Assembly: GCA_008632985.1 (NCBI GenBank)
Contig: QPGO01000010.1
Span: 682,001 to 746,000, forward strand
DNA: 64,000 bases
Source: Psammoneis japonica
Lineage: Eukaryota
Reading direction: 5' to 3'
A program made the position numbers and the translations under genes. Positions 26,963-64,000 of this stretch are shown piece by piece. Under the pieces are notes generated by a model. The model was not told the origin of the DNA and made no database searches. It saw only the letters and a list, made by a program, of their open reading frames with translations. The stretch's first letter is position 1; each line of letters starts with the position of its first letter.

Positions 26963-26974
26963 ATTGCACATTAG

Positions 26975-31331: not shown

Positions 31332-31367
31332 CTTGAACTTATTACCTTCTGTGGTGTGTATACACAA

Positions 31368-40488: not shown

Positions 40489-40809
40489 AGAGCATGGATC
40501 AGGATTTTCCCTGATGCTGTGAGCATTTGTGTGCAAATGCCAAATTTCGTTAAACAATGCTGTGTGAAATTTTGGATGACATCTAAATTGCATCACCATG
40601 CCATCACATCTACACTCTTCCCTTGCACAGGGGTGACTTCATCACAGCAACGTGGGAGGCTTCATGCTTTGTGTCAATCAATGAAGCAATGGGTCTTGCA
40701 ATCGAGTGAGTCAATCTTACAGTGCTGCCACCGGTGACATCTTCGTTGTCAAGGTCCGAGCTCTGCAGAATTCTCCATGATGACATCGTCATGTGTGCCG
40801 GCCAGTCAT

Positions 40810-42457: not shown

Positions 42458-44006
42458 GATTTTGAGTGCAAGAAACAAGCTGCTCTGGAACATCCAGGAG
42501 TGCATCCTTTCAATCATTGATGTCATCCCATGACTCAGTCATGTGCTCTTCATCAACATTTGAAGCTGACGGATCTTCTGTCAAAGGAGAGGGGAGAGGG
42601 CTGATGGATCTTCTGTCATGGGAGAGGGGAGAGGGAGCAAAGGTGACTGGCTGAGAGGTGCCACCATGATCTTGATCATCAACTCTGCACCACACCTGGC
42701 TCAGCTTCTTGACCTGGTCACTTCATCCTCTTGTGTTGTGGCAGCCAAGAAGCATGACGGTCCCTCAGATGCAGTCAGAGGAGTGACAAAAAAGGTGTGC
42801 AGATTCTCTGCAGGATGACATCATGCATCTTTTTGGAAAATTGTCAATTTCCACATGGCAGGATGATCTCAAGTGAATCATTCACCTGGGCACCACATCA
42901 TGTTGTGCAACGCCATCTTCTGTTCCAGTTCTGTCATCATTCACATGGTGTGTCAACAATCCAGAAGTGGGTTGAAGCACAAACCACCAAGGGTGCCAGA
43001 GGGGCTCTTCTTGAGCACATCCCACATTGCATTTCCAGAGGACACCTTGAAACAGTGGCACCAATGAAGATGACCTTGTGGGCAAGGTTCCTTGCATTTG
43101 GTCCATTCTCAACACAGCTCTCTGGCTGACATGCAATGGTTTGCGAAAAAAAGTGACCGGCATGTTTCACTGCACAGCTCAAGTGCATGAAAAGACATCA
43201 AGAACAGCATGCCCAGTGTTCATGCAATGGAGCAACTGAAGGATTGCTGCCTGCTGCAGACTCCAAGCCAGCAAGGAGAGGACGTCCTTCGTGGGCCAGA
43301 CTGAGAGTCACTGCATGAAAGCAGGAGCAGTGACGCAGCACACAGGTTGGAGGATGGACAACAGATGAGACAAGTGGAACGAGGCCAGCCCAAGGGATCC
43401 CTCATTGTCTGGCAGGATGGGAGACACCATGGAACTGTCGAGGCATCTCCAAGGAGATGCCAACAATGAAAACAGATGGACTGGAGAGACGCTTCCACTG
43501 TGCCATGTCATCGGGTGGAGTGCAGACAGCCGAGGTGGTGGCAGGGCGGGCGGGCAGGCGGGATCAGAATCCGCGGGATTCCACACGGCCGGCCGGACGG
43601 AAAAAGCGCGGAAGGTTGCGCTGCAATGGGCACGCACGTGCGGTGCCACAGCAGACAGGTGCGGCATGCATGTGGGCTGGAAGATGGAAGATCATCGCTC
43701 GGACGTCGGGAGCATCAACCTCGCGATTACCAAATCGCTCGCTGACCAACTAACCCGCTACTCCACCAAACTACAATCGCAAACATCAAACCCCAACTCG
43801 AAATCCATCCCTTTTCCTACCTAGGGGTACATGACTCAGCACAGTTCCGCCCCATTGCCCCGCGTCTGTCCCTCCCACCGCGCCACTAGGTGACGTTGCA
43901 CGTGAACTTCTCACGCGCGCGTACTACTAGCTAGTAGTAGGTAGTTTCCCTAACCACTAAGTAAATACAGCAGTAACAACACACGATGAACACAGGTTGA
44001 ACAAGG

Positions 44007-45308
44007 ATGTTACGGCAGGTTGTCTTCTCCGCGTCTAAACGTGTTACCTGTGCACGATGGAGTCCTATGGCAAAAATGTCAAGTCGCTCCCTGGCGACTG
44101 TTCAGCATTATGAGAAGGAACATGCTCATGAATCTTTGGCTGCCAGAGCTTTGTTTTCTGCAGCTGTCGGTGTCGGATCGTGCTTTGCCGTTCAAGTTGT
44201 TGCATGTGACAATGCAGAGCCAGTTGAGACGGACTCGGATGTTGTCTCTCAGGAGAACAATCCGTTGTGGCCAGCGGGCGTTTCATCAGAAATGGTCAAT
44301 GGCTATGTGGATGAAATACTTGACAATCCAGACATCAACATCCAAACAATTCCCGATAGCATCGAACGCCTCATTTACATATCAACTGTTCGACTCACAT
44401 TGAATGCTTTGTATAGCTCGTTATCTACATTTCATGGAGAAGAAGTGTTGGGTCATCAGTTGAAGTTGGTGAAAACGGGCACTGGCAAGAAACTGAACCT
44501 CCATCACAGCACCCGAAAAATCAACGCGAAACAACTGGACGATTTGGCATCCAAGCTGTTGGGAAACAAGGCAGTCAATCAACGTTGGTTACCGGATCGT
44601 ATTGAAAGACAATTGTACACAAACTGCTTGAAGCTTGTCTTTTCTCTATTGGATACAATCGCGGACTCGCTTAGCATTTGCGTCTGTGGCCATGTTTTGT
44701 CTCTTAGCTTTGAACCACTCTTGCACGATGCAATCGATCAACAACTTGCCGCAGTAGATGACGACAAACCAACCAGACATTTGGAGCTAAACGAAGCTAT
44801 TCTGGAGGAGCTGGTTACCGAAACCATTCGAGAATCGCAAGATACCTTTGATGGTACATCCTTGGCTTCGTACTTGCCATTCTATGAATCATTCCTGCGA
44901 AATCTGCACAAGACTCTCTGTAAGTTGGTTTGTTATGTAGTGCGAGAGCATTTCACTTGACGCTACTGCTTATGCTACAATAATTCTGTACACTCCTTTC
45001 TTCTTCTAGTTAGTCTCATTCTCGGTATTATAAGTGACATGCTTTCCAAGACGGAGCTCGCCGTGCTGGAGGAACGAATTCAAATGTACCTTGTACCGAT
45101 GGAGATCGAAACTTGGAGAGCAAACAGAAACACTGCAGAAAATGCCGTAACCAAGCAACAGCAAGAAGAGCTGATTGCTCAGCTCAAAAAGGAGCTTGAA
45201 GAAGCCCACAACGCCGAGGCTAAGGCACGAAAGATAGCTGGTATGGGTTTGATGGTTGGTGCTGTTGCATTGACAGTGGCGGCATTCCTCCAGGTCGTAG
45301 AAAACTGA
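44007..45308 (+). CDS. Uncharacterised protein with a mitochondrial-like presequence, internal repeats, a coiled coil and a C-terminal TM anchor; 2 exons (44007-44919, 45010-45308)
   Basis: Normal TpA/CpG content. The GT-AG intron 44920-45009 joins the two ORFs in frame. Repeats ILDNPDINIQTIPDSIERLIY and LLGNKAVNQRWLPDRIERQLY. Confidence 0.8.
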
Positions 45309-45559: not shown

Positions 45560-47015
45560 AAGCTGCGCTCCTTTTAAGGCTGATCCCACCTTTTTTGCTC
45601 AACACTTTCTCAATGGATCGCATCTTGATTTTCTACACTGACGATCTCATCCAGTTTGGATCAAATGAACACATTGAGAAGAAGTTCGAACAACTCATCA
45701 AGTCCAAGCATCATGTCACTTTTGCCAACGATGCACCATGGTTCCTGCAGATGCAAATTCATCAATGCGAGGATGGGTCCTTCTCTCTCAACCTGCATTG
45801 GCACTGACAGAACCTCTTTGCTTGCTTTCTCACTCCGGAATCTCCATGGGGCACTCCCAAGTTTCAGGACACCCTGCACCCTGGCACCCATCAATTGTGT
45901 GTGCTCCAAGACAAATTGTCCCCCCAGTCCAAGGCGGATGCAAAGGCCATTGCCACACTTAAGCCGACATTCTTTGGGCTGCTTGCAAGCTTGCCAAGGC
46001 TGTGCTGCACCTGGTGAAAAAGATTTTGACACTCTGGTTCACCCATTTGGCTGTCTATAAAAGCATCAAGACCTTGCCATCATGTTCTTCTTGGATCCCT
46101 CCAAGAGCCCAGTGTTTGCAATTTGCAAAGCTCGCAATGTCAGTCATTCTGATTGTGTTGTTTTCACAGTTGCAAGCTGGCAGGACTGCCCCGGTGCTGC
46201 AAGATCAACAGTCAGTTGTGTGGCTTTCTTCAATGGGGCAATTGTCAATGCCAACTCAACTGTCTCAACCCCTGTTGCAATGTCTTCTGCAGAATCCAAG
46301 TGGATGGGCATGGATGCTGGAGCAATGGCTGTTGCTCACATGTGCATGCTTGCCTGCAACTTCACTTGCCTTGGCACCAAGAAACACTCAACGAAATCCC
46401 AACGACTTGCCACCACTCCCACCCTTCTTCTGTTGGACAACAAGGCCACTCTTCAGATGGGCATCAATGACCAGCAGACCAAGCACACATGCCATGTCAA
46501 GCAACGTTTCCAACATGTCTGAGAAAGTCGCAGCAGGTGCGGTCATCACATCCCAGTTTGTGTCTCGGCAGAGACAGTCAACTCTTGCAGATGTTCTCAC
46601 TAAAACCTGAGTGGCCAAAAAGATCTGGATCATGTTTGATCATGCCCTTTGGTGTCTCTCTGCTCACATGACTTGTTCTTCCTGATTTCTCTTCACACAC
46701 ACATCAGATTCAAGGGGGGTGACAGGAATCGACCACAAACACGGTCAACATTAAAATCTCATGGCTGAACATCATGACAAATCAGCTGACAGTGACTGAA
46801 CTGTCTCTCACACGGGAATGATTTTTGCAAAGTTTGCTCCATGCTTTTTGACAGATCTCAATCACTTTTTGCTTCAGAGACCAGCTCTGAACATCTCACA
46901 ATGTCTGGAACATGCCATTTGTCCTGGTGTGGACCCCTTTTGGCTTGCTCCAACTGGCTTTGCCATTTGTCACCGGACTTGATCACCCTTTGTTTCTTTT
47001 GGTGAGACCTGCTCA
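45560..47015 (+). mobile_element. Decayed Ty1/Copia remnant: end of RT, RNase H, PPT (46712-46719) and a probable 3' LTR starting at 46720 (end uncertain)
   Basis: LIFYTDDL...WFLQMQI; FTVASWQDC..RST; VAMSSAESK; LDNKA; TKHTCHVKQRF; LADVLTK; then aagggggg-TG. Confidence 0.8.
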
Positions 47016-47929
47016 AGACTGGTTTGCTGTTAATTGGGCTTTGGCCATGGCATGATGGATTCTCCCATGTCCATGTCCATCATGACAAGCACAAGGAGGG
47101 TGCCACCCAACAGCAAACCAGGACCAGCGAGCAAATGGAGGCAGCCAAGAAAGGGAAGGGGCCCTGCTGCCATGGTGAGCATCAAAGCTGCCTGCATAAA
47201 AAAAAATAAACTTTGCCTTGATTGCCAACTTCTCCACCACCAGCAGACAGAAACTTGTTCACAAACCTTTCAACAACAACGATTGTTTGTTTTGAATTCA
47301 TCGTTCCCAAGTTGTTCACATTTTGAGCTGTCCTCAAGTGAGTTATCCAACACCACTGCTTTTTTCTTGTCTTTCGAGACCAAACACATAAAGGAGTGTA
47401 AGCCATCAAGCTTGATTGAATCTCTGGTGATGGACATGTTTCGAGTTGTGTGGCACAAAGGCAGTTGCAGCGGCAGCCAGGATTGCCACGGCCAGGAGGA
47501 GATTTTCTCTAAACATCCTCAATGTCTCTTTGGAGAGGCTGAATTTTATGGCATAAGGAGACTAGACTCGGGAAATTGATTAACATGGTGTCGAAGTAGA
47601 TCGAACAATGAGAATGGCTTTTCGCACCAATGCGTGGACGGAGAAAGCGGCAAAATGTGACCGTCGCGGCCAATCGAAATCGCTCTCGTACGCTCTCGCA
47701 TTGAATGTACGTTCACATATTTTCATAATATGGGTTCAACGATTTGAAAAATGCAAGCAGAAGCTAAGGTCCAACGCAAGTCTGGAGTTAGTTGCTATGC
47801 TGCCATCTTCACGAAACCATCAGAATCTTTCAACTTCTCGCTTTTGTGTTCGTCAATCGATTCAAAATATGTAATCTTTCACTAAAATAAGTTCACATGA
47901 AGGAGCACTTCCTTAGCGTTCGAATCGTC

Positions 47930-49999
47930 TCAGCGCGAAAGCAGTCCTGTCATCATGTCGTCGCTGCCTCTGCGGGAACCGGCAGCGCTCGCCGTAGTAG
48001 CTCTCCACATTCTCTTTATGTAGTAAACCACGTATGCTCGGTATTTTGTCAGCGCATGTCCAAGGGTGACCAATCCACAGCCAATCACAAGACCGGCTGG
48101 GATCATCCAGAGAGGGTTATGCTTGTGACTGTGCTGTCTGCCAATCATCATGTCGTCATCATCGTGCCTCCCACCAAACTCAATGATTGAGCCAAGAAGG
48201 CCATAGCAAGCCAAAGCCGTCCCACCAATCCATCCTGATAACTGAAGGACAGGGTGATTCAACAAGACACCAACGATGCTGCTCAAAACTACAAAGCTCC
48301 ACCAAGGGATCACTAGTCGATGTTTGTGCATGTTCGAGTCGTAGCCGCGATCCTCTTGCTCCCAGGCATACGCTGAGAAGTAGCAAATGATGGCATAGTA
48401 GACCCAAACCAACGTTTCACGGCAGATCTGTGGTGGCACTTTGAAAATCCCCAGAAGAGAGATGGAGGCTAGAAGTGCCGTCACGAACCCAAGCGCAATG
48501 GCGAAGTCGTCGTTGGCGAGACTCCCGAGAATATCAAAGACCATGACGATTGCCAGCGCCAAGCCTGAAGGGCTCTCTTTTTTCGTCAACAGCCAGTAGG
48601 AAGCCGGAAAGACCACAATTGATGCCAGGCCCCTCCCTATCGCATCGATCCATGTGTTGCACGCACTACCCGAACCATCTCCGCTAATCACTGTACCCAA
48701 GTTCTCTTCGCTCGTAACATTTGCAAGCGATTGGAGTTTCATGGTATCTGGATAAAGCTTGTAGATCTCCATCTGCGCAAATATCTTATCAAAAGTGCTG
48801 TGGTCGCGATTGTATGTGGTATACTCAAAGTAGAGTGCACCGTCGTGAGCCTTCATTTTGGCCTCTCGATCTCTGTCCAATAACCCTTTGTTAGTTTTCG
48901 GCCTCGGAGGCTGTGAGATGTTTCGAAAGCCAAAAGTGACATCTTCCCCTGAAGCGACACATAAAAGATGTCGCGGTGGGCGATCTCTCCCGAACCGTCT
49001 ACTAGTACTACGCTGCATGTCGCTTCTTTCCGTGTAGGCGCAACAAAAAGATTGCGATTGAGCCTCGCCGTCTCCCTTCACGCTAGTAAAGAACCGAGGA
49101 TCCAAGACATTTCGGTGTTTCTGTATGGCACCATCTTTTGCAGTTGAGATCAACGTCGGCCTGTAATCCGGACCGTTGTAGATAGCGTATTCATCGGCAT
49201 CTTCACTTGTCTCGTTCGTCGTTTTCTCGAATCCCTGGAAGAAAACTCTCCCATCATTGAGCCGAATGAATGATGAGGACATCCTGTCAATCTCACTATT
49301 CCAACGCCTGGCCCATTCTTGCAATTCACTGGGAAGGTGATCGATTTTCACACTGGTTTTGGAACCACGCTGCTCGGTCGGACCAGCGATGGCACAGTCA
49401 CGCTTCATCTTTGTAGAAGCCGAATATACTCTTAAACCAAGACAGCTCAGAAATCCTGCACCGCACAAAGCAGCGGCAATGTACAGTATGCTTACAAAGA
49501 AGGACACACGAGGCCGAAGCCGCTTCTGAAATAAACAGTCCATCTTTCGAGAAGCTTGTGCGTGCAGGTGATTTGTGTGGTGACCAGCAACCCTGCTCGT
49601 ATATTCTTCGTCCGTCTCGAGTGCCACCATTTCTTTTTCCATGAAGAGCGCAGCTTTTAAAAGGATTGCACAATCGATTAAAAGTATGAACGCACTCATC
49701 GCAGTATTTGTTTGAAACATGGAAATCCTCTCGGCCGTGAGTTTCTTGGCACTGATACCAGAATAGGCCCTGTACTCTTCACGGTCAAAGACCAGCAAAG
49801 TGGAGAAGGCAACCACATTGACGAGAAGGAAGATAACTGGCCACATGCCAAACTTGCACCAGAGCCTCCAAGTCGTTACGTACGAGGAAAGCGGGGGAAG
49901 TTCGATCTCCTCATCAGACTCATTTTCTTCGGTAATTTCCAAGTTCTCGACGTTCGCAGAGCCGGACAAATTTTCTTCATCGTCACTGTGATTCATCAT
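47930..49999 (-). CDS. Uncharacterised multi-pass membrane protein (about 3 N-terminal TMs, a large loop, about 7 C-terminal TMs)
   Basis: Long ORF with normal Tyr, TpA and CpG content and multiple hydrophobic segments. Probable start MMNHSDDEE at 49999. Confidence 0.8.
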   Translation of the reverse strand: MMNHSDDEENLSGSANVENLEITEENESDEEIELPPLSSYVTTWRLWCKFGMWPVIFLLVNVVAFSTLLVFDREEYRAYSGISAKKLTAERISMFQTNTAMSAFILLIDCAILLKAALFMEKEMVALETDEEYTSRVAGHHTNHLHAQASRKMDCLFQKRLRPRVSFFVSILYIAAALCGAGFLSCLGLRVYSASTKMKRDCAIAGPTEQRGSKTSVKIDHLPSELQEWARRWNSEIDRMSSSFIRLNDGRVFFQGFEKTTNETSEDADEYAIYNGPDYRPTLISTAKDGAIQKHRNVLDPRFFTSVKGDGEAQSQSFCCAYTERSDMQRSTSRRFGRDRPPRHLLCVASGEDVTFGFRNISQPPRPKTNKGLLDRDREAKMKAHDGALYFEYTTYNRDHSTFDKIFAQMEIYKLYPDTMKLQSLANVTSEENLGTVISGDGSGSACNTWIDAIGRGLASIVVFPASYWLLTKKESPSGLALAIVMVFDILGSLANDDFAIALGFVTALLASISLLGIFKVPPQICRETLVWVYYAIICYFSAYAWEQEDRGYDSNMHKHRLVIPWWSFVVLSSIVGVLLNHPVLQLSGWIGGTALACYGLLGSIIEFGGRHDDDDMMIGRQHSHKHNPLWMIPAGLVIGCGLVTLGHALTKYRAYVVYYIKRMWRATTASAAGSRRGSDDMMTGLLSR

Positions 50000-50249
50000 A
50001 GTACACTGTACTCTGCGGTTACTGACGGTTCGTGAGGAGCACTGAATACAATTTTCTGTCAATGGCAGCGACTTGTCATTTGTTTTCTCTCTTTTTTGTG
50101 TGTTTGCGTTTGCTAATCGCAAGGTTCACGTTGAGAACACGCGTCACGACTCACGACTCGAAGTTCGCGCTTCGCTATCCTCAGCCGACCTGGGACCCGG
50201 AGCAGGTGTGGACCTTTTTTAGAACAGATCCGGTGCGAGTTGGAGAGCA

Positions 50250-53200
50250 CAGCATGGTGACATGAAACATGCACTGGTTGATGCCTGATGCCGGCCAAGC
50301 TGTTTTTCCTGACGTTGCGTTTGACAGCTGCTCTCTGGAAAAAGGGAGAGATTTTCATTCCCACTGACAATTGGGTGCACTTGTGGCTGGAAACTCGGAG
50401 TGTCTTTCTTGTTCTTGCTTTTCTGTTGACTGCAGTTGCGTCCTTTCGACAGAGCTTGGGGCAAACACTGGCAAAGATCCAACTGCAGCTTGCTCTGGAA
50501 GGTGGTGCATCTGGTGTAGACTTGTCAGCAACATGGCCCAAACCCGAAGGAAAGAGAACAAGGTTTCCTGCGAGCATGTGGTGGGTTGTGAAATGGTTTT
50601 TTGAATGAAACGGGTGCATCCTGTTCCAACTTGCTTCTAGATTCAGCAGCAGTCAGGCAACCAAACAACGTTGTGGAATCAAATGAGGATGAGGACAAAA
50701 CAGCAGAGACTGTGGAGCAAAGCTGAGAAGCAACATTGGATGGAGGAGCTTTTCATTCTGCATGAATTCCAGCTCCATCAATCATGTGGGTCTTAGATTC
50801 GACAGCAGAAGACTCAACACCACAACAGCATAAAATGGAGGAATCATTGTGGGTGGAAGTGGGCTGGTGGATGAAATGAAAACATTGGACACTGCATCTG
50901 CAGGAAGATGCAGTGGATCCAACAACAAACGAAATGGGCAACTCGCCAAACAGCGATTCTTTCACATTGCCCCATCCTTTGTTTTTGGCCCACAACAAAA
51001 GATGCAATGTTCAGCATTTCAGAACTTGCCCACAGGCTTTCACCATTTCATTCCATGCTTCTTGTCACAAAGAAGCCAGAGTGATCATGATGCAACTGTG
51101 AGCATTGCCATGTGTCTAGCTGGTTGCAGCAGCCACGAGATTCTCATTGCAGACATTTGGCGCCCCAGATGTGTGCATTCTAAATTTCAGCTGTCTCAAG
51201 CATTGAACTTGCAGTGTTGTTTTTGACAGTGGGAATGTCTCAAGCAGCAGTGTCAATGGTGGATGTCTTGAGCAGGACACCAGCATCTTTGTCATTGACA
51301 GCAGGTGTCTCAAGCACTTTGCTCTTTGCTGCTGTGGCAATGTTGCAGTCATGCAATCTCACAGATTGGTGCATTCTGCTGGCTTTCTTGAAACTGAAGT
51401 GAGGCACACTCAACGGACACAAAAAGTGTGAACTTCTCCTCCAAAACACAAACACTGCCCTCTGTTTCTTGATGGTCCAAACAGGCTTGTCCTCAGAAAA
51501 TGGAGACTTTTTGGTGAAAAAGTGAGTCGCACTTGGCCTTTGAATTTTCAACACAAAACACAAACTTCAGCTCTTGACATGTGGGTGTGGAGAGTGCCAA
51601 GAAAACCAGAAACATGGAATCAGTCATCTCCAATTCCGCGCATTTGGAAACTGCAATTGCACTTGTCCAAAGGTCTCGTGATGACACCCAAGAAGCAGCC
51701 ACACAGTCTCCCTTTTTCAAAGAATAGAAACAAAGAATCTCAAAGCTGTGGTGGGCATGCTCCTTTTTGGTGATACAGTGTCCATTCTCATTGCACTCCA
51801 ATGGGCAAATGTCAATGCCTCTGGGGTTTTGTGTGGCTGATTTGTGTTTTTGCAACTGGTGCGCAAGGTGGAACCGGCTGGGTCACCCTGACAGGGATTG
51901 CTCGCTGCCCCACCCAAAGCCGTCATTGCCACCAAGGGCTTGGAAGCAGGTGCAGGAACTTTGGAAGCTGTGGATGGTGTGATGGATTTCCAACCCAGAG
52001 GAGCAGGCAGTGGGCCATGAGGGTCCAGCTCTGCCAGAATTGATGAAACAATCTCTCGCGCATTTGGTGCAAAACACCTTTCCTCCCACAAAAGTTCTGT
52101 CTTGATCTTCTTGGCCGTGCACACATTCATGGCTTTCTTTTTGAGTTCTTCCTCTTGTTGCTGTTCAGAAAGGTCCCGTTTCCTTTCCTGGACAGCCGCT
52201 GCTGCTTCTGGGTTGTCCTTCTTTTGACTTGCAGCAACCTGCTGGGCTCTTTGCCTCTTGGTGCGTTGCGCTGATGCCGCTCCTTTAAGAAATCCTTTTG
52301 CAGAGCTCATCTTGGCAACATGGATTGTCCTGTCCATGACACTTGTGCAATGACTCAATGGCAACTTGAACATTTCTGGTGGATGCAGCTGCTGCAGCAT
52401 GGCAGCAAACTTCACTGCAACAGGTGACAAAGAAATGGCAGAGGAAGACCATTGGTGGAGCGGCAGTTGTGGGGTGGAAGTGACACTTCCACTGGCAGGC
52501 TCTTGAGCATTTCCAGATCCACTTTTCTGGAAAATCTTGGTTGGGGACTTTTCAGCAGTTGGAGAAGAATTTTGTTGTGGAGACCATTGTGGTTGAGGCA
52601 TGATTTGTTGACAATGGGTCTGATTCGTTGAAGAACAATCCTTTGAACTGCCAATTGAACTGCCTGTTGCTGATGCTGTTGAAGCTGCATGATCTGCTGT
52701 TGCTGCTGTTGAAGTTGCATCTGCAACATGCATTGCTGCTGGGATGTTGCTCCAGGAGCTGCTGGCACTTGAGACTTCCATTGCATGGAAATGATGCCAA
52801 GTTTCTCCCAGAGAAACCACAACTTAAAGATGGCAGTTGCATCATCATTGGATCTCCCGGTGCATTCATTGGTGCAGGGTTGGATTTGTGGGCAAGTTCA
52901 GCATGTTTGGTGGCATGGACATTCCCTGATGCTGCATTCCTGAACCAGCAGAAGAGCGTCCCTTCTTCACATTTTTTAAGAAAATAACAACAATTGCTTT
53001 CACCAACAATCTTTGTGCTCTTGTGCTTTGCACCATTGCTTGAAACACAAACTCCACACAGCAAACACCAAAACATTCTTCTCTCATTGCAGCCAGGCTT
53101 TTGTGCTGTTCTTGGGCATTCATCTGCCACCCCACAATCCTCGTTTGTTTTGCACAAGAAAACAAATGTGAGAGTGATCCACCACCCATGTGGAAATGAC

Positions 53201-56200
53201 CCTCTCCACTGCCCCCCCCCCCACATGCCAGCTGGGAGAATCAGAAGCCTGGCACAAGCAGGATTGAAGATCAAGAGTCATGACTGCCAGAGAGACAGAC
53301 AGCAAAAGAGAAACAACACATCCATTTCCACGACCGACACCACACAATTGTCCACTTGCAAAGCCAACCAAACATTGAACCTCAAACAATTGACAGACCA
53401 GGAGGTTGCTCAGAGCATGAGCAGGACAGCAAACCAAGAGGTCGGCCAGGATGACACCAGAGTGCACTCCTGTTGGGAGGTCTTCCAGACCTTGCCCAGT
53501 CCAAGACGGAATCAGGTGGGTGACAGGAATGGCGCCAATTCTGCAGCAGCAAGTCACCAGGGAGCAGCCAAGGTGGCAACTGACAATGGCTCCAAGCAGT
53601 GCAAACCCCCACAGTGGGAGCTTGCAACATGGGCAGGGTTGGGGCACAATGCACGAATGGAACCTGAGATGCTTGACCTCCCAGAAGAGTCAATGGATCC
53701 ACTCATTTCATTCCCAGCATGCAGAGAAGCCATCTGCACATGGCACTCAGACAAAAGCTTGCGCCATGCTGTGTGGCTTGTTGAGCATCAAGGGATTGCA
53801 TTTTGACTGAAGCAGTTGTCTTGCTCACAATGATGTGTGCAATGGCTGCTCGGTCAACAGCAACGCCGGCACTCTTGTGCACAATTGGCTTGTCAAGCTT
53901 TCCCAAAGCAATCCTAAAAGCAGCCAATGGGTCAGTCTTGTTGTTCACAGAAAAGGTGCAAGGGGCAACTGGCAAAGTTGTTGCCAACAGAGTGGCAGCA
54001 TGGACAGGGGTGTCAACTCGGTGTGAGAGATGCTGGGCCCAGGTGCATCCGCAGCAGGACAAGGTGGCAGCAGCCTTCTTGGGAGCAGCAGAGGCATTGA
54101 AGGCTGGAACATGGGTGGGTTCCAGGGACAAAGTGGCCTGTGTTTGTGACAAATTTGCTTGCCCCAGAACAATGCTGTTGTCAAACGGGCACCATTTGCG
54201 GGGGGCATCTTGCTGGGGGAGAGCAGCCACAGCAGCAGTGGTGTGGTCTCAAGCTGCAGGGATTTAAGGGAAGCCAGAGAGTGGAGGCAATGGCAGGAGA
54301 GGCCATTGCATTGCCTTCAGCGGCAATGGCATCTGCTGCTGGCAGTGGAGGTGTGGCAGGAGGAATCGCAGCACATCCGGCAGCCAACACAGTGGATGCC
54401 AAAGTGGTGGCAGGAGTGCCGGGGGAGGCACCTGCAGTGGCAGCAGTGGGTGGTGGTGACTTGTCATCCTGAGCCAATGTTGGAGGCCAGACAGAGTGGC
54501 CTGCAGGGATGGCATTTGAGTTTTTTTCTATGATGACACCATCTTAGAGTGGGCGCCGTTCGTGGGGGTCATTGTGTGGTGTTTTGTTGCACTCAAAGAA
54601 ATCAAACTGTGCACATGGCAGTTGATGTTGGATCTTTGATGGCACTGCTTGTTGCGTGTAACCGTTTGAGCAAAAAAAGTTGAGCGGCCCACGCGGGCAC
54701 AGATTTTTTTCACTTTTGTGTGTTTCAGAAGGCAAAATCTGCCTCCAGATGGTCATTTGCCATCTCTTGCACTTTTTTAGATGGTTTGAAGCCAACAAAC
54801 CATGCAATGTCATTGGTGCTTGATCTGAAGAACTCTGCAAGCACTTCAAACAAACAAACACATCCACTTGAAGCTTTTCAATCCACTCAAAACATGCTGG
54901 AAAAGGACGAATCAACACGGCGCATCACGCATCATGGTCAAACATTGCACCACTTGCCTTCACCCCAATCATCTCCATTCGACACATGCAACATGGAGAA
55001 GGCATGTAAAAATCTGTTTGGTTGTTGTGATGAACCAATGACTTGCATTCCTGATTGTTGCACAATTGGTGTGCCAAGCCAAACACATCATTTTCAACAG
55101 TCCCATCCAACATTTGCAGGCAAACAGTGCGGCAAAGACTGCGTCAACTGCAACCTGCAATGCATGCTTGATGATTGCACAGAAACCAAAACGTGGATGC
55201 ATTGTGCATCCTGTTTGGACCACATCATGTTGGTGTGGACATTGGATGGAACTTGAGCTCAACTGCGATGACGTCGGGTGAGTCGTCAAGTGGTGGCACA
55301 TCCAGAACAAAATGAACGCGGTGGCTGACATTGGAGCCATGGCAGCAGTGGCTCAATTGTTGCTTGTTTTTGCATTGACAGAACAAACCTGAAGCTGCCG
55401 ATGAACATGCCGAGCAGGTGACAACGACATCTTGGAGGAATGGTTGTGGGAATGTTTTCCAGTGTGCCTTGTGATGCTCCCACCTTGGGCACCTGAGATG
55501 AAGCCAGTTGAGCTGCTGTGGAATTGTCTGGTGGAGCATCTTTTGCCAGCCCCATTTAGATGACTGCCTGTTTTTTTTTGGGTTCGGGTGGCCTGCCACA
55601 CAGCTGCCATCATGCAGTCATTCATGCCAGACGTGGAGACAGCCTGCCATCACTGTGGCTGCCAAGCAGTCTGGAGGTGACTCTGACATTGCAGCATCTG
55701 TGTTTGTTGACACATTGCAGTCTTTGGCCGTTTTTAAAATGCACTCAAGTGTGGTTGCCGGTGGGTGCAGGACAGCAGGATGAAAAGCCCACTTTGGATT
55801 CTCCCAGCTTGTTTCTCCCATTGTTGAATTGTGGCAGCACACCATGTTGCTGGTGCCATTACGGCATGTGCTCCAGCCCGGAGGACTCTCTCTTCCTGCA
55901 ATGGTGGCAGAGGTAGAGGGAATGGAGCTGGGGGTGGCCTGCTGTGGGTTTGTTCCCAATTTTCACCCGCAGTGCTGTTGCAACAGCACAGTCTGTTGCT
56001 GGCATTGTTGTGCATGGCTCTCCAGCCTGCTGCAGAGGAAAGACTGGCTGTGCTGGAGGCAGAGGCAGTGGCGGCTGAGACGGCATTGCACCACCACTGC
56101 AGCAATCCATGGAATCTCATCAGTCAGATCATTGTTGGCTCGGTTCATCCTCCAGTTCATCCTTTCTTGATGTTGTGTTGTTGCGTTTGTCAAGGTCATG

Positions 56201-56800
56201 GCCATCAGATCCAGTGGAATGAGACGTGTCACAACAAAAGACGGCAAATGATTGTCGTGGAGGCAGATTTTGCCTTGAAATGCAAAGTTAAAAAAAATCC
56301 GTGCTCGCATGGCCTGCTCTCAACTTTTTTGCTCAAATGGTTGCACAGATGACACCGCATGCATCAGACCTTGCCAAGAACCACCAACATGCTGGATGAC
56401 CAAAGTTCATGACTGTTCAAATCTGTTTGCAGATGAACATTGCTGATCACCAAGCTCCAACCAGCCTGCTGACCTTGTGCCTCTTGCCAATGTGACACGA
56501 CACTGAACACATTTGGCAGAACAGTGTGGGTGTGTGCGAAGAAACATGCAGAACTTGTGTGGAGTTTTGTGCGTTCAACAGTGATCAACGTTGCTGCAGA
56601 CAACTCCCACTCAGGGTTTCGAAACCCTGGCCTTCTGCCCAATGGCTGCGCAATGAACCACTCCACTGTGAATTCACAACGCAGCATGCATGCAGACAAA
56701 AGGTCACTTTTGTCATGACCTTTGTGACATTTAAAGGCTGCAACACGTCGCCGTGATGCACTGACTCTCACAAGTGGCTGGATGTTGCACTTGTGCCAAC
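50250..56800. repeat. Decayed repeat tract depleted of TpA and CpG
   Basis: Same TG/CA-dominated composition as the other tracts; only degenerate ORFs. Confidence 0.8.
54655..56347. mobile_element. TIR element (~110-bp imperfect TIRs) carrying two decayed WW-domain coding segments
   Basis: gtgtaaccgtttgagcaaaaaaagttgag...ggcaaaatctgcctcca at the left is the reverse complement of tggaggcagattttgcc...ctcaacttttttgctcaaatggttgcac at the right. Minus-strand PPGWSTCRNGTSNMVCCHNSTMGETSWENP and AGWRAMHNNASNRLCCCNSTAGENWE. Confidence 0.75.
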
Positions 56801-56805
56801 ACTGC

Positions 56806-57842
56806 CGCCCAACACATCATTCTGCTCTGCTGTGTGGTTGGCCTCTGAACTTGGTTGAAGTCAGCTCTTTGGCATGCTTTGCTCACTGCTCCTTCCAGGT
56901 GTTGTCTCTGGAGGGTCTCAATGCTTGCCACAGTCTTTCTGAAATCACCTCACACTTTGCTGTTTCTGCTCACAGCTGCAGCTGCAAAGGTCAATGTGTT
57001 GAGTTCACTCTCTGCCAACACCAACAAGGCTGCCATTGATTGCTTGGTGACTTGGGATCAGAGATGGAGCAATGACAGAACTGGCTGGCATGTTGAAGAT
57101 GTCCGCAAGCATCTTCAACAACATGGTGGCAGCATCATTCCCAATGTTGACCATGAAGAAAAGGAAACTTCTGGAGGAGTGAGAGTGTTTGTGCCGCTTG
57201 GTGGAAAGATGGTTGACATGGCTTTCTCAACTCAGAACAGCAGCATCAACAAAGTTGTTGGCATTGATGGCACATTCAAAAAGCACTCGACATGTTCATT
57301 GCACTCAACTCTCTGCTCAACATCAAAGAATCTCAAGAATGCAATGATGATGGATTCAGTCTCTTCACTGGAGACAAGATCACACCGCTCCATGGAGACT
57401 TTTTCCTCATGGACAAGGCATCGGTTGAAAAGTTTGATGCCATTTGGGATCGGGCTTCTGTTGTTGCAATTGAACCCGATTTGCAGGAGGACCATGTGCA
57501 AATCTTGGGCCATCCACTCAAACCTGGCGGCACTCTGCCAGTCTCAACTTCAGACAAGAGGGAGTTGCCTCCCAAGGCCAGGGCCGGTGGACCTCCGCAT
57601 TCTGTGTCTGAGTCAGAAATTTGCAGGCTTTGTGAAGCATTGGAAAGAGTTGAGTCCCCATCACCCCTGTTTCTGACAATGAAGCTGACGAGAAGCTGGG
57701 AATCAGACCCAGCGCTCGCAAGGTTGCCTTTGTGATCAAAACAAAGAACAGTGTTCCGTGAAATGCCAAGACAGTTCTTGGACAATTTGAGATTAAAGAG
57801 ATTTTTTATCACCGCTGTTCCCATCAACTGCATGTCGCAAAA
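56806..57842 (+). pseudogene. Hypermutated, frameshifted DNA-level copy of the TPMT gene and its flanks (parent about 34850-35872)
   Basis: Aligns end to end with the parent, including upstream and 3' sequence. Frameshift near 57271. Substitutions concentrate at TpA and CpG. Confidence 0.97.
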
Positions 57843-57889
57843 CTCAGAAAAGTTGAGCAGCTTTTGCACTTGATCTGAGAATGCATGGC

Positions 57890-59528
57890 GTGGTGCAATG
57901 TCAGAAGCAGGACCGTGAATTGTCGTGGGCATTGACAGCATTGGCTTCTTGGTGCAATGGCCATGTGGGGACTGTCCATTTGTTTGTTCTCGGGAAATGC
58001 TTGCCCCTCCAACAACAAGAACAACGTCTGCAAGATTGTGGTGGGTGGCAGACATTGAAACATTCATGCCCACATCACATGGGTCTGAATCAGGGGCTGC
58101 AAGAACCACTGAGCAATTTCCAATTCTTTCCTCTCAAATCTTTTGCTCCTTTGCAGCTGCTGTTGAGTCTTTTGCAATGTCTTCAATGGTTTTCTGTGTT
58201 GCATTTTGAGTTGTCACAAGCAAATCTTTGGTGGCCGCAGGGTCAGATGCACCTGCCGTTCATTGAGTGTCTTGCCAAGAGGACTGACACATCCACATTT
58301 TGTGATTTGCTGTGCTGAAATGGTCCATCAATTTCCAACAGAGGTTGGCAGACATGCTTGCATGACAGACCTCAAGGGACCTGAGACATTGCCTGAGCCA
58401 TGGCCTTGATTTCAGCAGGTGCAACCAACACCTCTGGGGCATCTGCATTGGCAGCTTCTCTCCTTTGTGCTTTTTGTTGTTGTTGGCTGCACACCTCGAG
58501 ACTCCCTTGAGGTCTGTTGAAAATGGAAATGTTGCATCCTTTGCAGCATCAACTGCGAAGGCGTTCTTAGTGTGCTGATGCCCTGTGTGGGCCAAAACAA
58601 CCATTCAAAGCGAAACCCATGCACTGACAAGAAACAGGCCCTGTTTTAATGGAGTGCTCAAAAGACAAGCCAGCATCCATGCAACCAGTGTGCTCAACAG
58701 CCAACTTGTCACCCAAAACAATGGCAGCTCTCCATCTGACAACAACAACTCTCAACAACTCTTGAATTCCCCCTTTTTCGCTGACTCAAACAACTGTTGA
58801 ACCTCTGGCTGCGGCATTTGACAATGGCTTGACAACAATTTTGATGACACCCATGGTTGACAGTTCCCCAGAAAGATGAGAGGCTGGGGTCCACTCAGTT
58901 TTGTTGAGGTGCTTCTTGTCAACAATGGATGGCATTGTGGCATGCTGTTGCAATGCTGCATTCTTGGACAAAGGTGTAGAAAGGTTTCTGCACAAGTCGC
59001 AGCTCAGAACTTGAGTGGCACAATGGTTTGAACTGTTGTTGTGCTCCTTGATTTCTTTCAACAAGCAAAGTGAAACCAACAGGGAGGGGGGGTTGACAGG
59101 TTTCAACCAATCAGTCTCTGAGTCTGACCACAAAAAGCCCATGATGCAAATGGTTTTGCTGCCTGAAGATTCAATGTGCCTGCCAGTTTTGGCTGTCACA
59201 GCCCATGATTTGTTTTGGAGAACCCACCAGCACACTGCTGTCACAAGGTCTTGTGCCACCTTTGGCTGCACTGGGCAAAAAGAATGACAATCAAGAAATG
59301 TGTGCAAGTTGCAGCACACTTGAGTCTCTCATTCTGCACAGTGTTGGCTTGAAAATCCTGTTGCCTCTGCCAATGGGCTCGATGTCTGTTTTGGATGATG
59401 ACTGCTCTTCCACTTGATGCAACCAACTTGTGTTCATGAGCTTTCAAACCTTTCTGGCTCTGAAAGATCAATTTCCAACCACATTCTTTTTCTTGTTTTC
59501 ACCCATCATTGGCAAGTTTTTTTGCATG
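57890..59528. repeat. ~1.65-kb decayed interspersed repeat, copy 2
   Basis: Collinear with 40810-42457. Confidence 0.92.
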
Positions 59529-59534
59529 AATGTC

Positions 59535-59699
59535 GTTGAACCTGATTTGTGGGAGGACTGTGTGCAAACCCTGGGCCATCTGCTCAAACCTGGCGGCACT
59601 CTGCCAGTTTCAACTTTGGACAAAGGGAGTTGCCTCCTGAGGCCAGGGCAGGTGGACCTCCATGTTCTGTGCCTGAGTTGGAAATTTGCAGGCTTTGTG
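59535..59699 (+). pseudogene. Third, partial TPMT copy (parent about 35505-35670), followed by a re-duplication of 58684-58753
   Basis: ttgaacctgatttgtgggaggactgtgtgc...gagttggaaatttgcaggctttgtg aligns to the parent. Confidence 0.93.
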
Positions 59700-59770
59700 C
59701 AACCAGTGTGCTCAACAGCCAACTTGTCACCCAAAACAATGGCAGCTCTCCATTTGACAACAACAACTCT

Positions 59771-62700
59771 CACTTTTCTACACAAGCACACATCAGTCGT
59801 TTCCACGTGGAATTCTACGAGCTTTTTGTGCCAAGCAGCCGTCACCATGACAACCCCTCCTCCACCGCAGGCTAGCCCCACCGGTGTTCCTCCCCCGGAT
59901 CCTCCCCCCATTGTGGATCACACCCCATTGACTCCAACAAGAACTGGGTCCAAAAAGTCCAACGCGATTGGCCCCAACGAAATCACGATCCGTTTTGAGT
60001 TAACGTCGGCAGAGGATGATGCCTCTACGGTGCCAGCTGTGGGTCACACCACTGTCCTCCATGCCCTGCAACAAAAAGCATCTCAAGATCCTTTGACCCA
60101 CAAAATCTCCATTGTGTCGAATCGAGGAATTGATGTTCCCGATGTCAACGTCGTCGAATGGAATTCTGGACTAACTCATTCGCAACACTTCGTGGTTCAC
60201 TGCGTCGGAGGCACCCGCCGCCGCCCTCCTGCTTGCATCATCGCCCACCGCATCCGCACTGCTTTGACTCTTGCCGAAGTCAGGAATGTTCCCTTTGTTC
60301 ACAAAGTTCTCAAAGATGACGGCATTTACATGCGACGTCATGAATGGGACGAAACCACCGTCGATTTATCTCGTGTTGCCCTTGTTCTCGATTTCGCGCC
60401 AAAGCATTGCCCTGCGGACATTGTTCAGAAACGACTTGTGTCAATTCTACCACCCCGCAGTCGCTCCAAGGTTCCCTTCCGGTTGATTGTTCAATCGGCA
60501 ACATCCCCACTCGACAAGGATGTCAAAGCAACTTTCTGCACAATCGAGACTCCTCGAGACCGAGCCAAAGATGTGATTGCTGCTTTAATGGAAGTGCTGA
60601 AGGATCATCCTTTAGCGGTTGTCTTTACTCGCTGGCGGTGCACCCAACCAGAACAATTCGACAAAGCAGTTCGGAAGCAATGTAAAACCGCAGCGATGCT
60701 CCACGTGATTCCATTGTTGCACTACACTGATGGAATGCATTTTTGCATGTCTGACAAAATTACAACGATCCCCGGAGCAGTGGACGTCGTTCCAGCAAAG
60801 AAGAAAACCTTGATTCCCCGTTGCAACATTCTCGTGGACAAACTGTACTTTCACAAAGCCAAAGAACAAATCACTGAAAACTCATCGGAATGGACAAACG
60901 ATCTTCCGGATGATGAGCTGCCATTTGTTCACCAACCACGTCCTGTGATTCCGGGTCTCAACGACGACATCTCCGATGCAGCTCAGTCCATTGCCTCGGC
61001 GACCATCCAAAGCTGGAAGTCGTCAGACATTTCTGACATCTCGCCTTCTGACTCCCATGCTGCCAAACCTGCTCCACAGCCACCCCCCCCACCGGTTCCA
61101 CGAAACGTCGGGATTCACGGAGGTTTTCAGACCTTTGCCCAAGTGCTGGAAAGTTCCACAAGCGCGGCAGTGCCAAGAGCAACCCCAACTTCAGAGTTGA
61201 CATCTCGGACTGACGACATCGCAGAACTCAAACAAATGGTCTTACAGCACCATCAGGAACAGGATCGTCGGTTAGAGCAGCTAGAACAGCAACATCAGGC
61301 ATCTCTTGAGCAACTTGCATCAAAGTTTCAATCTCTGATTCAAGAAACAATTTCAACCATGTCTCAAGGTGCAGCATCTCCTCAGAGGAAGAAACCTGCA
61401 CTTTCCGCTCCGGCAGGGTCTTCATCTCATCATCCTCCCAACGACACCACTGTGGACGACGCCGAACAAGATGACTCGGTTTTTTCCTGGGGCAGGACCA
61501 GTCGTCTCACCTGCCTGGCTCCCATGACGCACACGCCAGTCGCACTTCTCAGTCTTTCTTCGAGAAAGCACGGCATCACACCCGGGGGTGATGCCCCTTC
61601 GGCAGCACTTAATCCCGCTGCTCAGCAGTGGTCCCAGATGTTGTCAGGCAGAAGTTTTGCACCTCTCTCCAGCACCATTGATCACACTGCTTTGCAACAG
61701 AATGACCCGATTGGAGATCAGTTAGGCCCTAAATCTCCTGAACATGCACGATTGCACGCGTTCAACGCAAACGGATGCGCTCATGACCTCCAAGGCGGCG
61801 ACTTCAATGCATGTTCTCAAGTCGCTGTGGAAGCACAGGCAGATGTCGTTGGAATGTCCGAAACTTGCTTGGACACTGCGCAGTTCAAAGTCCGACAGAG
61901 TTGCTCCAATGCAGTTCGCCAGTCTCTTCATCATGGCCGTTTGACGTTGTCATCCTCCAAGACCACCTTTTCTGCTCCTTACAAACCAGGGGGTGCCGCC
62001 TCATTTTCATGCAATTCCCTGTCTTCACGTTGCCGTACCCAACATGAGGATCCCCCTGGAAGATGGTCCATTCAAATTTTCGATGGACGCCACGGACGGC
62101 AAGTGATGTTTGTGTCTTGTTGTCGAGTTTGCTCCAACTCTTCGGTTGCAGGAAAAACAACAGCTTGTGCTCAACAGGTGGCACTGCTGCGACAACAAGG
62201 GCGAGCGAACCCAGACCCAAGACGATCCTTTTGCACTGACCTGACTCGGATCTTAGAGAGGTTTCTCGATGACACCGACCGAGAGGTCACTCTGTTCGGA
62301 GACTTCAGTGCAGACTTCCGAACTGATGACGACACCCTTGCTTCCATGGCGCAACGGTTCAACATGTCTGATGCAATGTGTTGCCATCAAGAAGACCTTG
62401 AATTTTCCACTTGCATGAGAGGATCTCGTCGGTTAGACTTCGTTTTGGCAACCCCAGGGGCTTTGGCAGCCTCTAGAAAGTGTGGGTGCGAATCTTTCGG
62501 ATGTCGCATGTCTTCGGATCACCGAGCATGTTTTGTCGATTTTGACACAGTGGCATTGTTTGGCAACCCTGCCGTCGACCTGCCACGTGCCAAACACCGT
62601 GACCCAAGCAAATTCTCCCAAACACATCACTGCATGCCTGGAGACAATGGCTTCACTGTCGCACAGCCAAAACGTTACGGTGCGAACCGAAGCCTTGATC

Positions 62701-64000
62701 CAGTCCTCGACTCCAGACCACAGACTCGCAGAGAGACTTGATCGGGACATCCCACAGTTTTCCATGTCGTCTGCAAAGCATTGCCGATGACATGAAGAAC
62801 CAGCATGGTCTGTTAAACTGGCTGGTCTCCGTCGACAGATTTTCGCATTGTCCAGGATGATGTTGATGTTTCGTGCCAAGGTCGACATGGTGCCTTCGAT
62901 TCTACGTGCTAAGTTTGACCTCAAAGATTCCTCCATTCTCCCAATTGCCCTGCAGGAATGTGCGATTGCTCTACGAAAAGCTCAGTCAGAGTGCCGTCAG
63001 GCAGCACGCGAAAGTCAGCAACATCGAGACGAAGAACGAGATGCCTGCATTGCTGAACTCGAACTGGATGGTGCCAAACAATCGAAGGCCACTGCACGAA
63101 TTTTACGGAATCAATGTTGTGCGGAAGAAACTGAGAGGGCATTCAGGAAGATCAATGCATGCAAGAGAGCGGAAGGAGCCAGCATCCGAACCATTCAGAT
63201 TCCTGAAGATCCCAGAGATGATCCCAAAACATGCGAGAATTGGATGACGATCGATGCTCCAGACGATGTGGAATCAGCTCTCCAACACAGAAACCAACGG
63301 CACTTCGGCCAGGCACAAGGCACTCCCCCCACAGTTCCACCTCTGTCAGTCGACTTGGGCCATGAAGGTGACACAGTGATGGCGGATCTAATCCTAGACG
63401 GAGAACACGAAACCAGTCACCTGAACCGTGCTGCTTCGTCATTGATGCAACACCTTCGACGAAGGACTCCATCAGCAGTTTCAAATTCTCTCACCCCAGA
63501 GGCACTTCGCTCAAAGACAAAACTGTGGTCAGAGTCAACGTCTGCCTCCTTGAAGTCAGGGCTGCATTTGGGACACTGGAAAGCCATGCATGCTCCACAC
63601 TCCCATTCCAATGATTGTGATGAAGACGGCATCCCTTCAGATCGGAAAGAGTTGTCAGACTCAGTTCAGCAGTCACTGGTGTCTGTGCGACTCAATCTGA
63701 TCAACTGCGCACTAAAGTGGGGATGCTCACACAAACGGTGGAAGGACATGGTCAATGTTGTGATCTTCAAAGAACCAGGCAACAACAAAATACACCGACT
63801 GCGAGTGATCCACATTTACGAGGCAGACTTTCAACTCATCACAAGCGTGAAGTGGCGTGAGTTAGCCCAGCACATGGAACATCATCGAATGCACAATCCC
63901 GGCATTTGCGGATGTCGCTCCTTCCTCTCTGCTCAAACTCCTGTGTTTCTCGAAAACATGATGCTGGAGACATCGCGCGCCTCACGGAAAACCTTGCTCA
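59771..64000 (+). mobile_element. Non-LTR retrotransposon (LINE), possibly of the diatom Ambal-like clade. ORF1 from ATG 59847; ORF2 with an APE endonuclease (about 61730-62560) and the start of RT running off the window. Frameshift near 62615 and TGA at 62788-62790.
   Basis: APE motifs FNANG, ADVVGMSET, GRWS, LFGDFS, RGSRRLDF, SDHR. Downstream RNQRHFGQAQGTP, WSESTS...SGLHLGH, RWKDMVNVVIFKEPGNNKIHRLRVIHIYEAD. Confidence 0.9.

Follow-up and report, generated by a model that had tools for sequence, protein, structure and literature searches.

Results

The locus

We analysed 64,000 nucleotides of the genome of the diatom Psammoneis japonica (assembly GCA_008632985.1, contig QPGO01000010.1, positions 682,001–746,000 of the forward strand), a stretch that we call the window and number from its first base. 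It carries an intact TPMT gene and a pseudogene copy of that gene whose coding part contains no TpA dinucleotide. The copy lies in one of six blocks of DNA in which TpA is almost absent, and the window further holds a young Ty3/gypsy element, part of a LINE-type (long interspersed nuclear element) retrotransposon, a duplicated repeat termed R and a short element present in very high copy number (Table 1). An earlier note on this DNA had read the gene and its copy as repeat-confined hypermutation of TpA to TpG or CpA, a signature for which it knew of no described system.

Table 1 Main features of the window. o/e, observed-to-expected ratio; LTR, long terminal repeat; ORF, open reading frame.
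Feature	Position	Strand	Evidence and remarks
TPMT gene, intact, 278 aa, unmutated parent	34958–35794	+	Pfam TPMT, E=1.6e-43
Source segment of the duplication	34716–35873	+	TPMT gene with ~240 bp upstream and ~80 bp downstream; alignments, sequence inspection
TPMT pseudogene, copy 1	56364–57841	+	Upstream homology 56364–56465; main aligned body 56789–57841
TPMT fragment, copy 2	59536–59699	+	Matches parent 35505–35666
TA/CG-free block B1	6922–21700		TA o/e 0.05, CG o/e 0.11, TG 1.91, CA 1.78
TA-free block B2	37900–43727		TA o/e 0.05, CG o/e 0.40; ends ~280 bp upstream of the ORF start at 44007
TA/CG-free block B3	50700–59800		TA o/e 0.05, CG o/e 0.24; contains the TPMT copies
Older TA/CG-free block, left half	25874–26598		Composition profile; split by the gypsy insertion
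Older TA/CG-free block, right half	31751–33436		Composition profile
Repeat R, copy 1	57869–59529	+	Paralog of copy 2, 87.1% identity; TA-free
Repeat R, copy 2	40787–42457	+	TA-free
Young Ty3/gypsy element	26562–31746	-	Pfam RVT_1, RNase H, rve; intact pol 27099–30095
Gypsy LTRs	26572–26950 and 31365–31746
ORF upstream of gypsy pol, 396 aa	30177–31367		Putative gag by position only; no Pfam family
Non-LTR (LINE-type) retrotransposon, multi-copy	59900–64000	+	TA o/e 0.15, CG o/e 0.82; runs off the window
Very high-copy short element upstream of TPMT copy 1	56562–56770		Summed contig depth 9000–25000, 24 contigs; tRNA-like T-arm string

A TA-free copy of the TPMT gene

The TPMT protein has 237 homologs, of which the named ones are all from diatoms. 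Its duplicate at 57 kb carries frame-breaking indels and is therefore a pseudogene; Pfam TPMT matches to it are partial only and spread over two frames. Because the copy includes ~240 bp of DNA from upstream of the gene and is interrupted by a short high-copy element, inserted at ~56466–56790, it is a DNA-level duplicate inside a 9-kb block. Our recount gave 23 TA and 48 CG dinucleotides in the parent coding sequence, and 0 TA and 14 CG in the corresponding part of the copy (56921–57761), so that the counts of 23, 0 and 14 in the earlier note are exact. Base composition alone would predict ~56 TA in the copy, and none of 20000 mononucleotide shuffles was free of TA (0/20000). Over the full length of the copy only two TpA remain, both in its 3' flank.

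A local alignment of parent 34831–35873 with copy 56789–57841 (1054 columns, 916 identical, 12 with gaps, 87.9% identity) resolved these losses site by site. The copy has lost 33 of 35 parental TA, 14 of them to TG, 16 to CA and 3 to other dinucleotides, together with 43 of 57 parental CG (20 to TG, 20 to CA, 3 to other). From parent to copy, A>G changes affected 15/35 adenines in TpA and 6/223 other adenines (43% vs 2.7%; Fisher p=1.4e-10). The excess is specific to the 5' neighbour: A>G was seen at 4/80 adenines in ApA, 1/64 in CpA and 1/79 in GpA, and the change rate of AA, CA and GA adenines was 1–5%. The complementary T>C change was similarly enriched (16/34 TpA thymines vs 12/239 other thymines; p=1e-9). 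These data bear out the claim of a separate, strand-symmetric A:T>G:C process specific to TpA that acts beside CpG decay.

TpA was converted to CG by a double hit in one case, and the rarity of this outcome fits a process that halts once the TA is lost. Runs tests on the TG and CA outcomes along the copy gave no sign of processive single-strand bursts: the two outcomes are unclustered and alternate at random (p=0.43, 0.68, 0.73), so that numerous independent hits are likelier than a small number of bursts on one strand.

The bases of the copy are reproduced by contigs of a public DNA sequencing run (one sample, depth ~65, possibly the assembly's own sample; hereafter the DNA run). Compared with the assembly, these contigs show 0 differences at 56741–57432, inside the copy, 2 at 54070–55885 and 6 at 46790–52689.

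Polarity of the changes

The direction of change was read from proteins, from a three-way alignment and from gene order. At 49 codons with an amino-acid difference, the parent carries the majority residue of 40 diatom homologs in 40 cases and the copy in 6, with 3 ties. Three parental tyrosines have become His, His and Cys in the copy; one of them, Tyr191, is Tyr in 40/40 diatom homologs and His in the copy. The short TPMT fragment allowed both copies to be compared with the parent at 22 parental TA or CG sites. Ten of these show the same product in both copies and at seven the two copies disagree, TG standing against CA, the remainder being lost in one copy only (3), retained in both (1) or otherwise changed (1). 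Such a disagreement is parsimoniously derived only from TA or CG, even in the absence of an outgroup.

A proteasome beta-3 exon lies at ~24.2–24.6 kb of the window, and the named best matches of the TPMT and proteasome beta-3 proteins come only from diatoms (Cyclophora, Mayamaea, Nitzschia, Cylindrotheca, Attheya, Eucampia, Fragilaria), with no 100% identical entry in the protein collections searched. A dinoflagellate origin of the DNA was rejected: the spliced-leader motif was matched 5 times at 3 mismatches, where 3.87 matches are expected. On scaffold10 of Nitzschia sp. Nitz4 the TPMT and proteasome beta-3 genes are ~3 kb apart, and since their counterparts are likewise neighbours in the window, the TPMT gene at 35 kb occupies the ancestral locus. 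Protein outgroups, the third TPMT sequence and synteny together show that TA is the ancestral state.

TpA loss extends over chromosomal domains

Over the whole window the TA o/e ratio is 0.25 and the CG o/e ratio 0.55. Six blocks, 32.8 kb together, have TA o/e ratios of 0.00–0.05, CG o/e ratios of 0.11–0.40 and TG/CA o/e ratios of 1.74–1.91. TpA loss is confined to such domains: six gene-bearing regions have TA o/e ratios of 0.40–0.64 and CG o/e ratios of 0.80–1.05. Runs of at least 300 bp free of TA number 40 and sum to 26609 bp; a TA-free run of 1199 bp (38724–39922) has a CG o/e ratio of 0.57. Block edges are sharp to 100–200 bp and fall at the ends of younger insertions and near ORF starts. 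In block B3, for example, depletion of TA sets in at ~50200, beside the start of an ORF at 47930–50122.

The TPMT copy makes up a small part of B3, which extends past the duplicate on both sides. Because the affected domain (~50.2–59.8 kb) far exceeds the 1-kb duplicate, the stretch at 50.7–52.7 kb has single-copy depth in the DNA run and the parent gene is untouched, the unit affected is a chromosomal domain and not a repeat pair, and the description of the process as repeat-confined has to be dropped.

We searched the blocks for the remains of mobile elements. Among 120 stop-to-stop ORFs of at least 100 aa, Pfam yielded two TPMT pieces and two chance-level matches only, with no mobile-element domain. 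The gypsy pol and the ORF upstream of it, used as tblastn queries within the window, returned the element itself only, and a self-comparison of the window after collapsing the bases to purine and pyrimidine (RY) gave nothing beyond the BLAST repeats and no hidden paralogs. Two further observations concern the blocks. The single N of the assembly in this window, at 32439, lies inside TA-free DNA, and B2 contains a 293-bp inverted repeat (38894–39186 and 40198–40488; 85% identity) with arms ~1 kb apart, which may derive from a foldback element or form the terminal inverted repeats of a DNA transposon now decayed.

Mobile elements separate TpA loss from CpG loss

Repeated sequences in the window record when and where the changes arose. 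The two TA-free copies of repeat R differ by 42 swaps of TG for CA, which account for 84/149 transitions between them; the two copies therefore decayed independently after duplication. The gypsy element is nested in an older TA/CG-free block, and in a 250-bp profile TpA and CpG reappear exactly at its ends. Within the element CpG is normal and TpA partly lost. The two LTRs of one element are identical at insertion, so their differences arose in place. Among 26 difference events, 13 interchange TA with TG or CA, 5 interchange TG with CA, 2 are CpG-related and 6 are of other kinds; by site, the LTRs differ at 14/21 TpA and 2/25 CpG. The left LTR (26572–26950) keeps 8 TpA and the right one 20, although the two are ~5 kb apart and both abut TA-free DNA, so hits are patchy within a single element. 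In each of these pairs the process acted in place, after duplication or insertion.

The LINE-type element at the right end of the window lies at 3–6x single-copy depth in contigs of the DNA run. Its 1103-aa ORF (59430–62741) had no homolog in a word-indexed search, and an exhaustive search with the adjacent frame identified the element as LINE-type. The region has 1980 homologs, and the five that we scanned are 1485–2038 aa long, 4/5 with an EEP match and 2/5 with an RVT_1 match below Pfam's cut-off; the EEP match in the window is itself weak (E=0.0012) and below that cut-off. At four of five conserved tyrosine positions the element now carries His or Cys, and its Tyr content is 0.2% of residues vs 3.0% in 55 homologs, which indicates that the low-tyrosine state is derived. 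At 59430–59900 the long ORF reads in frame through the second TPMT fragment, only because this TA-free sequence lacks stop codons, and the true start of the LINE ORF probably lies downstream of 59.8 kb. A frame change at 62741–62791 separates the endonuclease portion from a region that corresponds to the stretch upstream of the reverse transcriptase in homologs, so this copy contains at least one frameshift or stop.

The short element upstream of TPMT copy 1 gave nothing in ARAGORN and Rfam scans. Loose ends in a second sequencing run, which behaves like RNA (see below), contain a version of it that keeps TA and CG where the copy in the window has TG. The element may be a short interspersed nuclear element with an unmutated source copy.

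Ordered by their loss of TpA and CpG, the apparent age layers are the gypsy element, then the LINE, then the old blocks. TpA and CpG loss are decoupled, as the LTRs (14/21 vs 2/25), the LINE (TA 0.15 vs CG 0.82) and the TA-free run at 38724–39922 with its CG o/e of 0.57 demonstrate. The TpA process is thus separate from CpG decay and apparently runs ahead of it. The comparison suggests that TpA loss is about an order of magnitude faster than CpG loss and does not depend on it; the ratio rests on uncertain baselines, and a later onset of methylation may be all that lies behind it.

Sequence context of TpA loss

To define which TpA are lost most readily, we compared 98 TpA surviving in the blocks with 904 TpA in normal, gene-rich regions. 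Relative survival was highest for TTAA (0.48), followed by CTAA/TTAG (0.24), CTAG (0.11), GTAA/TTAC (0.11), ATAA/TTAT (0.067), CTAC/GTAG (0.041), ATAG/CTAT (0.024) and ATAC/GTAT (0.014); no GTAC (0/85) or ATAT (0/50) survived. A uniform rate of TpA loss was rejected (chi-square 114.6). A four-parameter model that assigns each 5'-TAN strand context its own loss rate (TAA 0.33, TAG 1.11, TAC 2.08, TAT 2.47), the rates being multiplied over the two strands, fits all 10 NTAN classes (residual deviance 5.35 on 6 degrees of freedom, p=0.50). The fit is suggestive of a per-strand rule set by the 3' neighbour, TAT>TAC>TAG>TAA, as would be expected of an enzyme that reads a single strand at a time. The same model fits CpG poorly (deviance 18.1 on 6 degrees of freedom), and CpG depends only weakly on its flanks, with per-strand survival of 0.35–0.59 compared with an 8-fold range for TpA. 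This weak flank effect and poor fit are another sign of two separate processes.

Variation, reading frames and neighbouring genes

Half of the differences (3/6) between the window and the contig of the DNA run at 46790–52689 are TA>TG/CA, and two of these lie in 50200–52689, a stretch with just 10 TpA left (Fisher p=0.001). At least 37 variant events separate the window from the contigs compared with it; among those listed, 29 interconvert TA or CG with TG or CA. Possibly the TpA process is ongoing. The variants may be alleles, paralogs or drift in culture.

About 90% of the stop codons left in the blocks are TGA, and stop density is 2.5–2.9% of codons vs 3.3–4.0%. A change of TA to TG or CA cannot create a stop and converts TAA and TAG, hence the many long ORFs in the blocks that have no homologs. 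It is also by this property that the gypsy and LINE reading frames remain open as the encoded proteins degrade.

The run that behaves like RNA is not recorded as such; one of its contigs skips 44919–45010 at GT..AG, a 90-bp intron in the gene that starts at 44007. Its contigs cover 44.0–45.2 and 47.9–50.0 kb; for the TA-free block the matches listed include only short mismatched pieces, and contigs cannot show absence. The two ORFs thus covered, 47930–50122 (- strand; 730 aa) and 44007–44960 (+ strand), match no Pfam family and are lineage-specific genes. At the left end of the window, a 1671-aa ORF (135–5150, + strand) has a strong Pfam PT-repeat match and nested tandem repeats of ~63–86% identity, and probably encodes a repetitive secreted or cell-surface protein.

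Discussion

We are highly confident that the phenomenon described here is real. Its best explanation, which we hold to be somewhat better than an even bet, is that two transition processes act in place on domains of diatom nuclear DNA and that the TpA process proceeds by adenine deamination; for the chemistry by itself, deamination of adenine in DNA, we would put the chances at even or slightly above. The affected domains are non-genic nuclear DNA, built in part at least from duplicated fragments and decayed mobile elements. One process would be fast and specific to TpA, turning TA into TG or CA, with a site no longer a target once hit. The other would be ordinary decay of CpG to TG or CA, seemingly lagging and most likely due to deamination of 5-methylcytosine (5mC). 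The TPMT pseudogene would have landed in such a domain and recorded the process base by base, the parent 21 kb away being spared. At 5'-T-A an enzyme would deaminate adenine to hypoxanthine, which is read as G, on each strand independently and with a 3' neighbour preference of T > C > G > A. What the window shows is the signature, its polarity, its operation in place once a duplication or insertion had occurred, its decoupling from CpG loss and its restriction to domains; we infer deaminase chemistry, targeting by silent chromatin and a role in defence.

The tRNA adenosine deaminases TadA and ADAT2 invariably act in the context U33-A34, and by analogy a relative of these enzymes acting on DNA would derive its TpA specificity from that context. 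We know of no natural chromatin-targeted DNA activity of the TadA/ADAT2 family shown in algae. In these enzymes and the adenine base editors derived from them the deaminated A follows U or T, which would give the TpA rule. ADAT2 has been put forward for a comparable case (10.64898/2026.01.13.699255).

That case is the chlorarachniophyte Bigelowiella natans, and it overtakes the earlier note's remark that no such system had been described. In the available text of a single recent preprint, two silent viral inserts gained 231 single-nucleotide mutations de novo; 230 of them are A>G or T>C changes, and every one of these 230 lies on TpA (Mettrop et al., bioRxiv, 10.64898/2026.01.13.699255). As described there, they arose in mutation-accumulation lines at ~6e-7 per site per generation, a subset of the lines being affected; of the two inserts the larger one is present in single copy; TpA-poor, CpA+TpG-rich clusters occur genome-wide, enriched for reverse-transcriptase and transposase domains; and the authors propose an ADAT2-like adenine deaminase (10.64898/2026.01.13.699255). 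The P. japonica window shares the targeting of TpA by A>G and T>C changes that yield TpG and CpA (30/33 lost TpA became TG or CA), the restriction to discrete regions, the trace of TpA depletion with CpA and TpG enrichment, and the fact that single-copy DNA can be a target. The two cases also differ. De novo events were observed in B. natans, whereas here the process is read from sequence comparisons. One organism belongs to the Rhizaria and the other to the Stramenopila. The targets in the preprint are silent viral DNA, and here they are gypsy and LINE elements but also a host-gene duplicate and block DNA of mostly unrecognised origin. Depletion in the window is near-total (o/e ~0.05 over ~33 of its 64 kb), whereas the preprint gives a Rho of 0.45 for the nucleocytoplasmic large DNA virus (NCLDV) insert. 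CpG decay accompanies TpA loss here and a 3'-neighbour rule is apparent; the words diatom, CpG, trinucleotide, flanking and downstream are all absent from the main text of the preprint (10.64898/2026.01.13.699255). A literature search of open-access papers and bioRxiv found no report of TpA hypermutation in a diatom. In one metagenome scan, a single gypsy relative (L001, 46% identity) had normal TpA (o/e 0.82–1.27), which has no bearing on generality.

Several points weigh against adenine deamination in silent domains as the explanation. All results come from one 64-kb window, and the DNA run may be from the same sample as the assembly and so not provide independent support. The origin of most block DNA is unrecognised, the 120 ORFs having given no mobile-element Pfam match. 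Polarised asymmetric sites follow the context rule only as a trend, with 12/17 hit on the TAY strand (p=0.14), and the full rank order is followed in 13/20 polarised sites (p=0.26); being based on survivors, the rule could also be distorted by TpA regeneration or coding constraints. The process is not universal in diatoms, because mutation accumulation in Phaeodactylum tricornutum has a GC>AT bias and the main text of that paper does not use the term TpA. Finally, T>C change by way of a modified thymine predicts an identical sequence pattern, and symmetric data do not distinguish an A>G change from a T>C change on the opposite strand.

Along such a thymine route, the T of TpA would be modified in silent chromatin, for example to 5-hydroxymethyluracil (5hmU) or 5-formyluracil by a TET/JBP-type enzyme, and mispair with G to give T>C on either strand. 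Dinoflagellates, which like diatoms are algae of the SAR group (Stramenopila, Alveolata, Rhizaria), have much of their thymine replaced by 5hmU, preferentially at TpA and TpC, and this speaks for the route. We nevertheless consider it unlikely: we know of no such thymine modification in diatoms, and the 5hmU:A pair is normally not mutagenic. The available text of the B. natans preprint favours adenine deamination (10.64898/2026.01.13.699255). Recognition of repeats by homology, as in fungal RIP (repeat-induced point mutation), is improbable as the trigger. The targets do include repeats (the TPMT copies, the R pair, the LTRs and the multi-copy LINE), and diatoms encode DNMT4, related to fungal RID, according to the available text of PMC9998398. 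However, the parent TPMT gene is unmutated, with its 23 TpA and conserved Tyr codons kept, the TA-free domain runs kilobases past the 1-kb duplicate into DNA of single-copy depth, the RY-collapsed self-comparison found no hidden repeats within the window, and the larger target insert of B. natans is single-copy in the preprint's account (10.64898/2026.01.13.699255). A cytosine methyltransferase, moreover, does not account for A:T>G:C. The likeness to RIP lies in dense, dinucleotide-specific transitions in non-genic or mobile DNA that leave aberrant blocks and plausibly disable mobile elements. As the earlier note rightly held, the direction is the opposite: RIP makes TpA from CpA, whereas here TpA is destroyed and C>T at CpA is 0/64. 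RIP also depends on duplication and mutates both copies, and the process described here, unlike RIP, cannot create stop codons and removes TAA and TAG.

Deamination of 5mC would account for the CpG half of the pattern only, with 40/43 lost CpG turned into TG (20) or CA (20), evenly between strands, and CpG methylation of diatom transposable elements is described in the available text of PMC9998398. That TpA loss is a by-product of this decay, through error-prone Pol-eta-like patch repair (WA>WG) of 5mC-deamination mismatches, was a candidate mechanism of the earlier note and finds some support in the coincidence of both losses in the oldest blocks. We think it very unlikely, since the motif is TA and not WA (15/35 vs 4/80 at AA), TpA loss comes far ahead of CpG loss in the young gypsy LTRs and the LINE, and the TG and CA outcomes are unclustered along the copy. 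Editing of RNA or cDNA intermediates of transposons by an ADAR-like or other deaminase, followed by integration of the edited copies, would fit the retroelements among the targets, and ADAR favours a 5' U. ADAR and APOBEC hypermutation also resembles our case as a defence by clustered, deaminase-type transitions, but it acts on RNA or single-stranded cDNA with strand bias and looser context, whereas the changes here lie in chromosomal DNA, on both strands about equally and strictly in TpA, with AA spared. The 3' preference of ADAR is for G, the opposite of the T/C preference seen here (order T>C>G>A). The mutated TPMT copy includes upstream non-coding DNA and sits inside a continuous TA-free domain larger than itself, and the duplicates (R pair, TPMT copies) decayed independently in place; we give this reading hardly any weight. 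An artefact, or reversed polarity with the parent having gained TpA by RIP (CpA>TpA), is least credible of all. In some long-read assemblies, heavy modification of the DNA can lead to systematic errors in base calling. Yet contigs of the DNA run give the same bases, a strand-specific miscall would leave a mixture of TG and CA reads at every site and not clean contigs, and the copy also carries indels and other substitutions. As to polarity, the parent ORF is intact and agrees with its homologs, and the three-way alignment polarises the changes. What stands of the original interpretation is thus a distinct, strand-symmetric, TpA-specific process opposite to RIP; its confinement to repeats and its lack of precedent do not.

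For diatom genomes, a practical consequence is that the long ORFs without homologs in such blocks are traps for gene prediction. The process is of the same kind as the hypermutation of B. natans, far more complete and in a diatom. Relative to the available text of that preprint, the window adds that the target need not be foreign, that TpA loss seemingly runs ahead of and independently of CpG decay, that a trinucleotide rule may apply to each strand, and that tyrosine codons are erased while ORFs stay open (10.64898/2026.01.13.699255). A strict TpA signature in a second, phylogenetically distant alga, here run to saturation, makes a dedicated enzyme much more likely. It also provides a comparative handle: candidates would be genes of the deaminase fold or for thymine modification that this diatom and B. 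natans have and P. tricornutum lacks. Adenine base editors are to our knowledge all laboratory-evolved, and we know of no natural enzyme that mutates adenine in chromosomal DNA. Tentatively, and at somewhat longer odds than even, we propose that diatoms and chlorarachniophytes share a chromatin-guided DNA adenine deaminase that acts at 5'-TA (best at TAT and TAC) as a defensive 'reverse RIP', and that is either ancient in SAR or has passed between lineages. If this is true, such an enzyme would erase all tyrosine codons, TATA-like and AATAAA-like signals and the TA and TTAA targets of transposons from silenced DNA, without ever making a stop codon.

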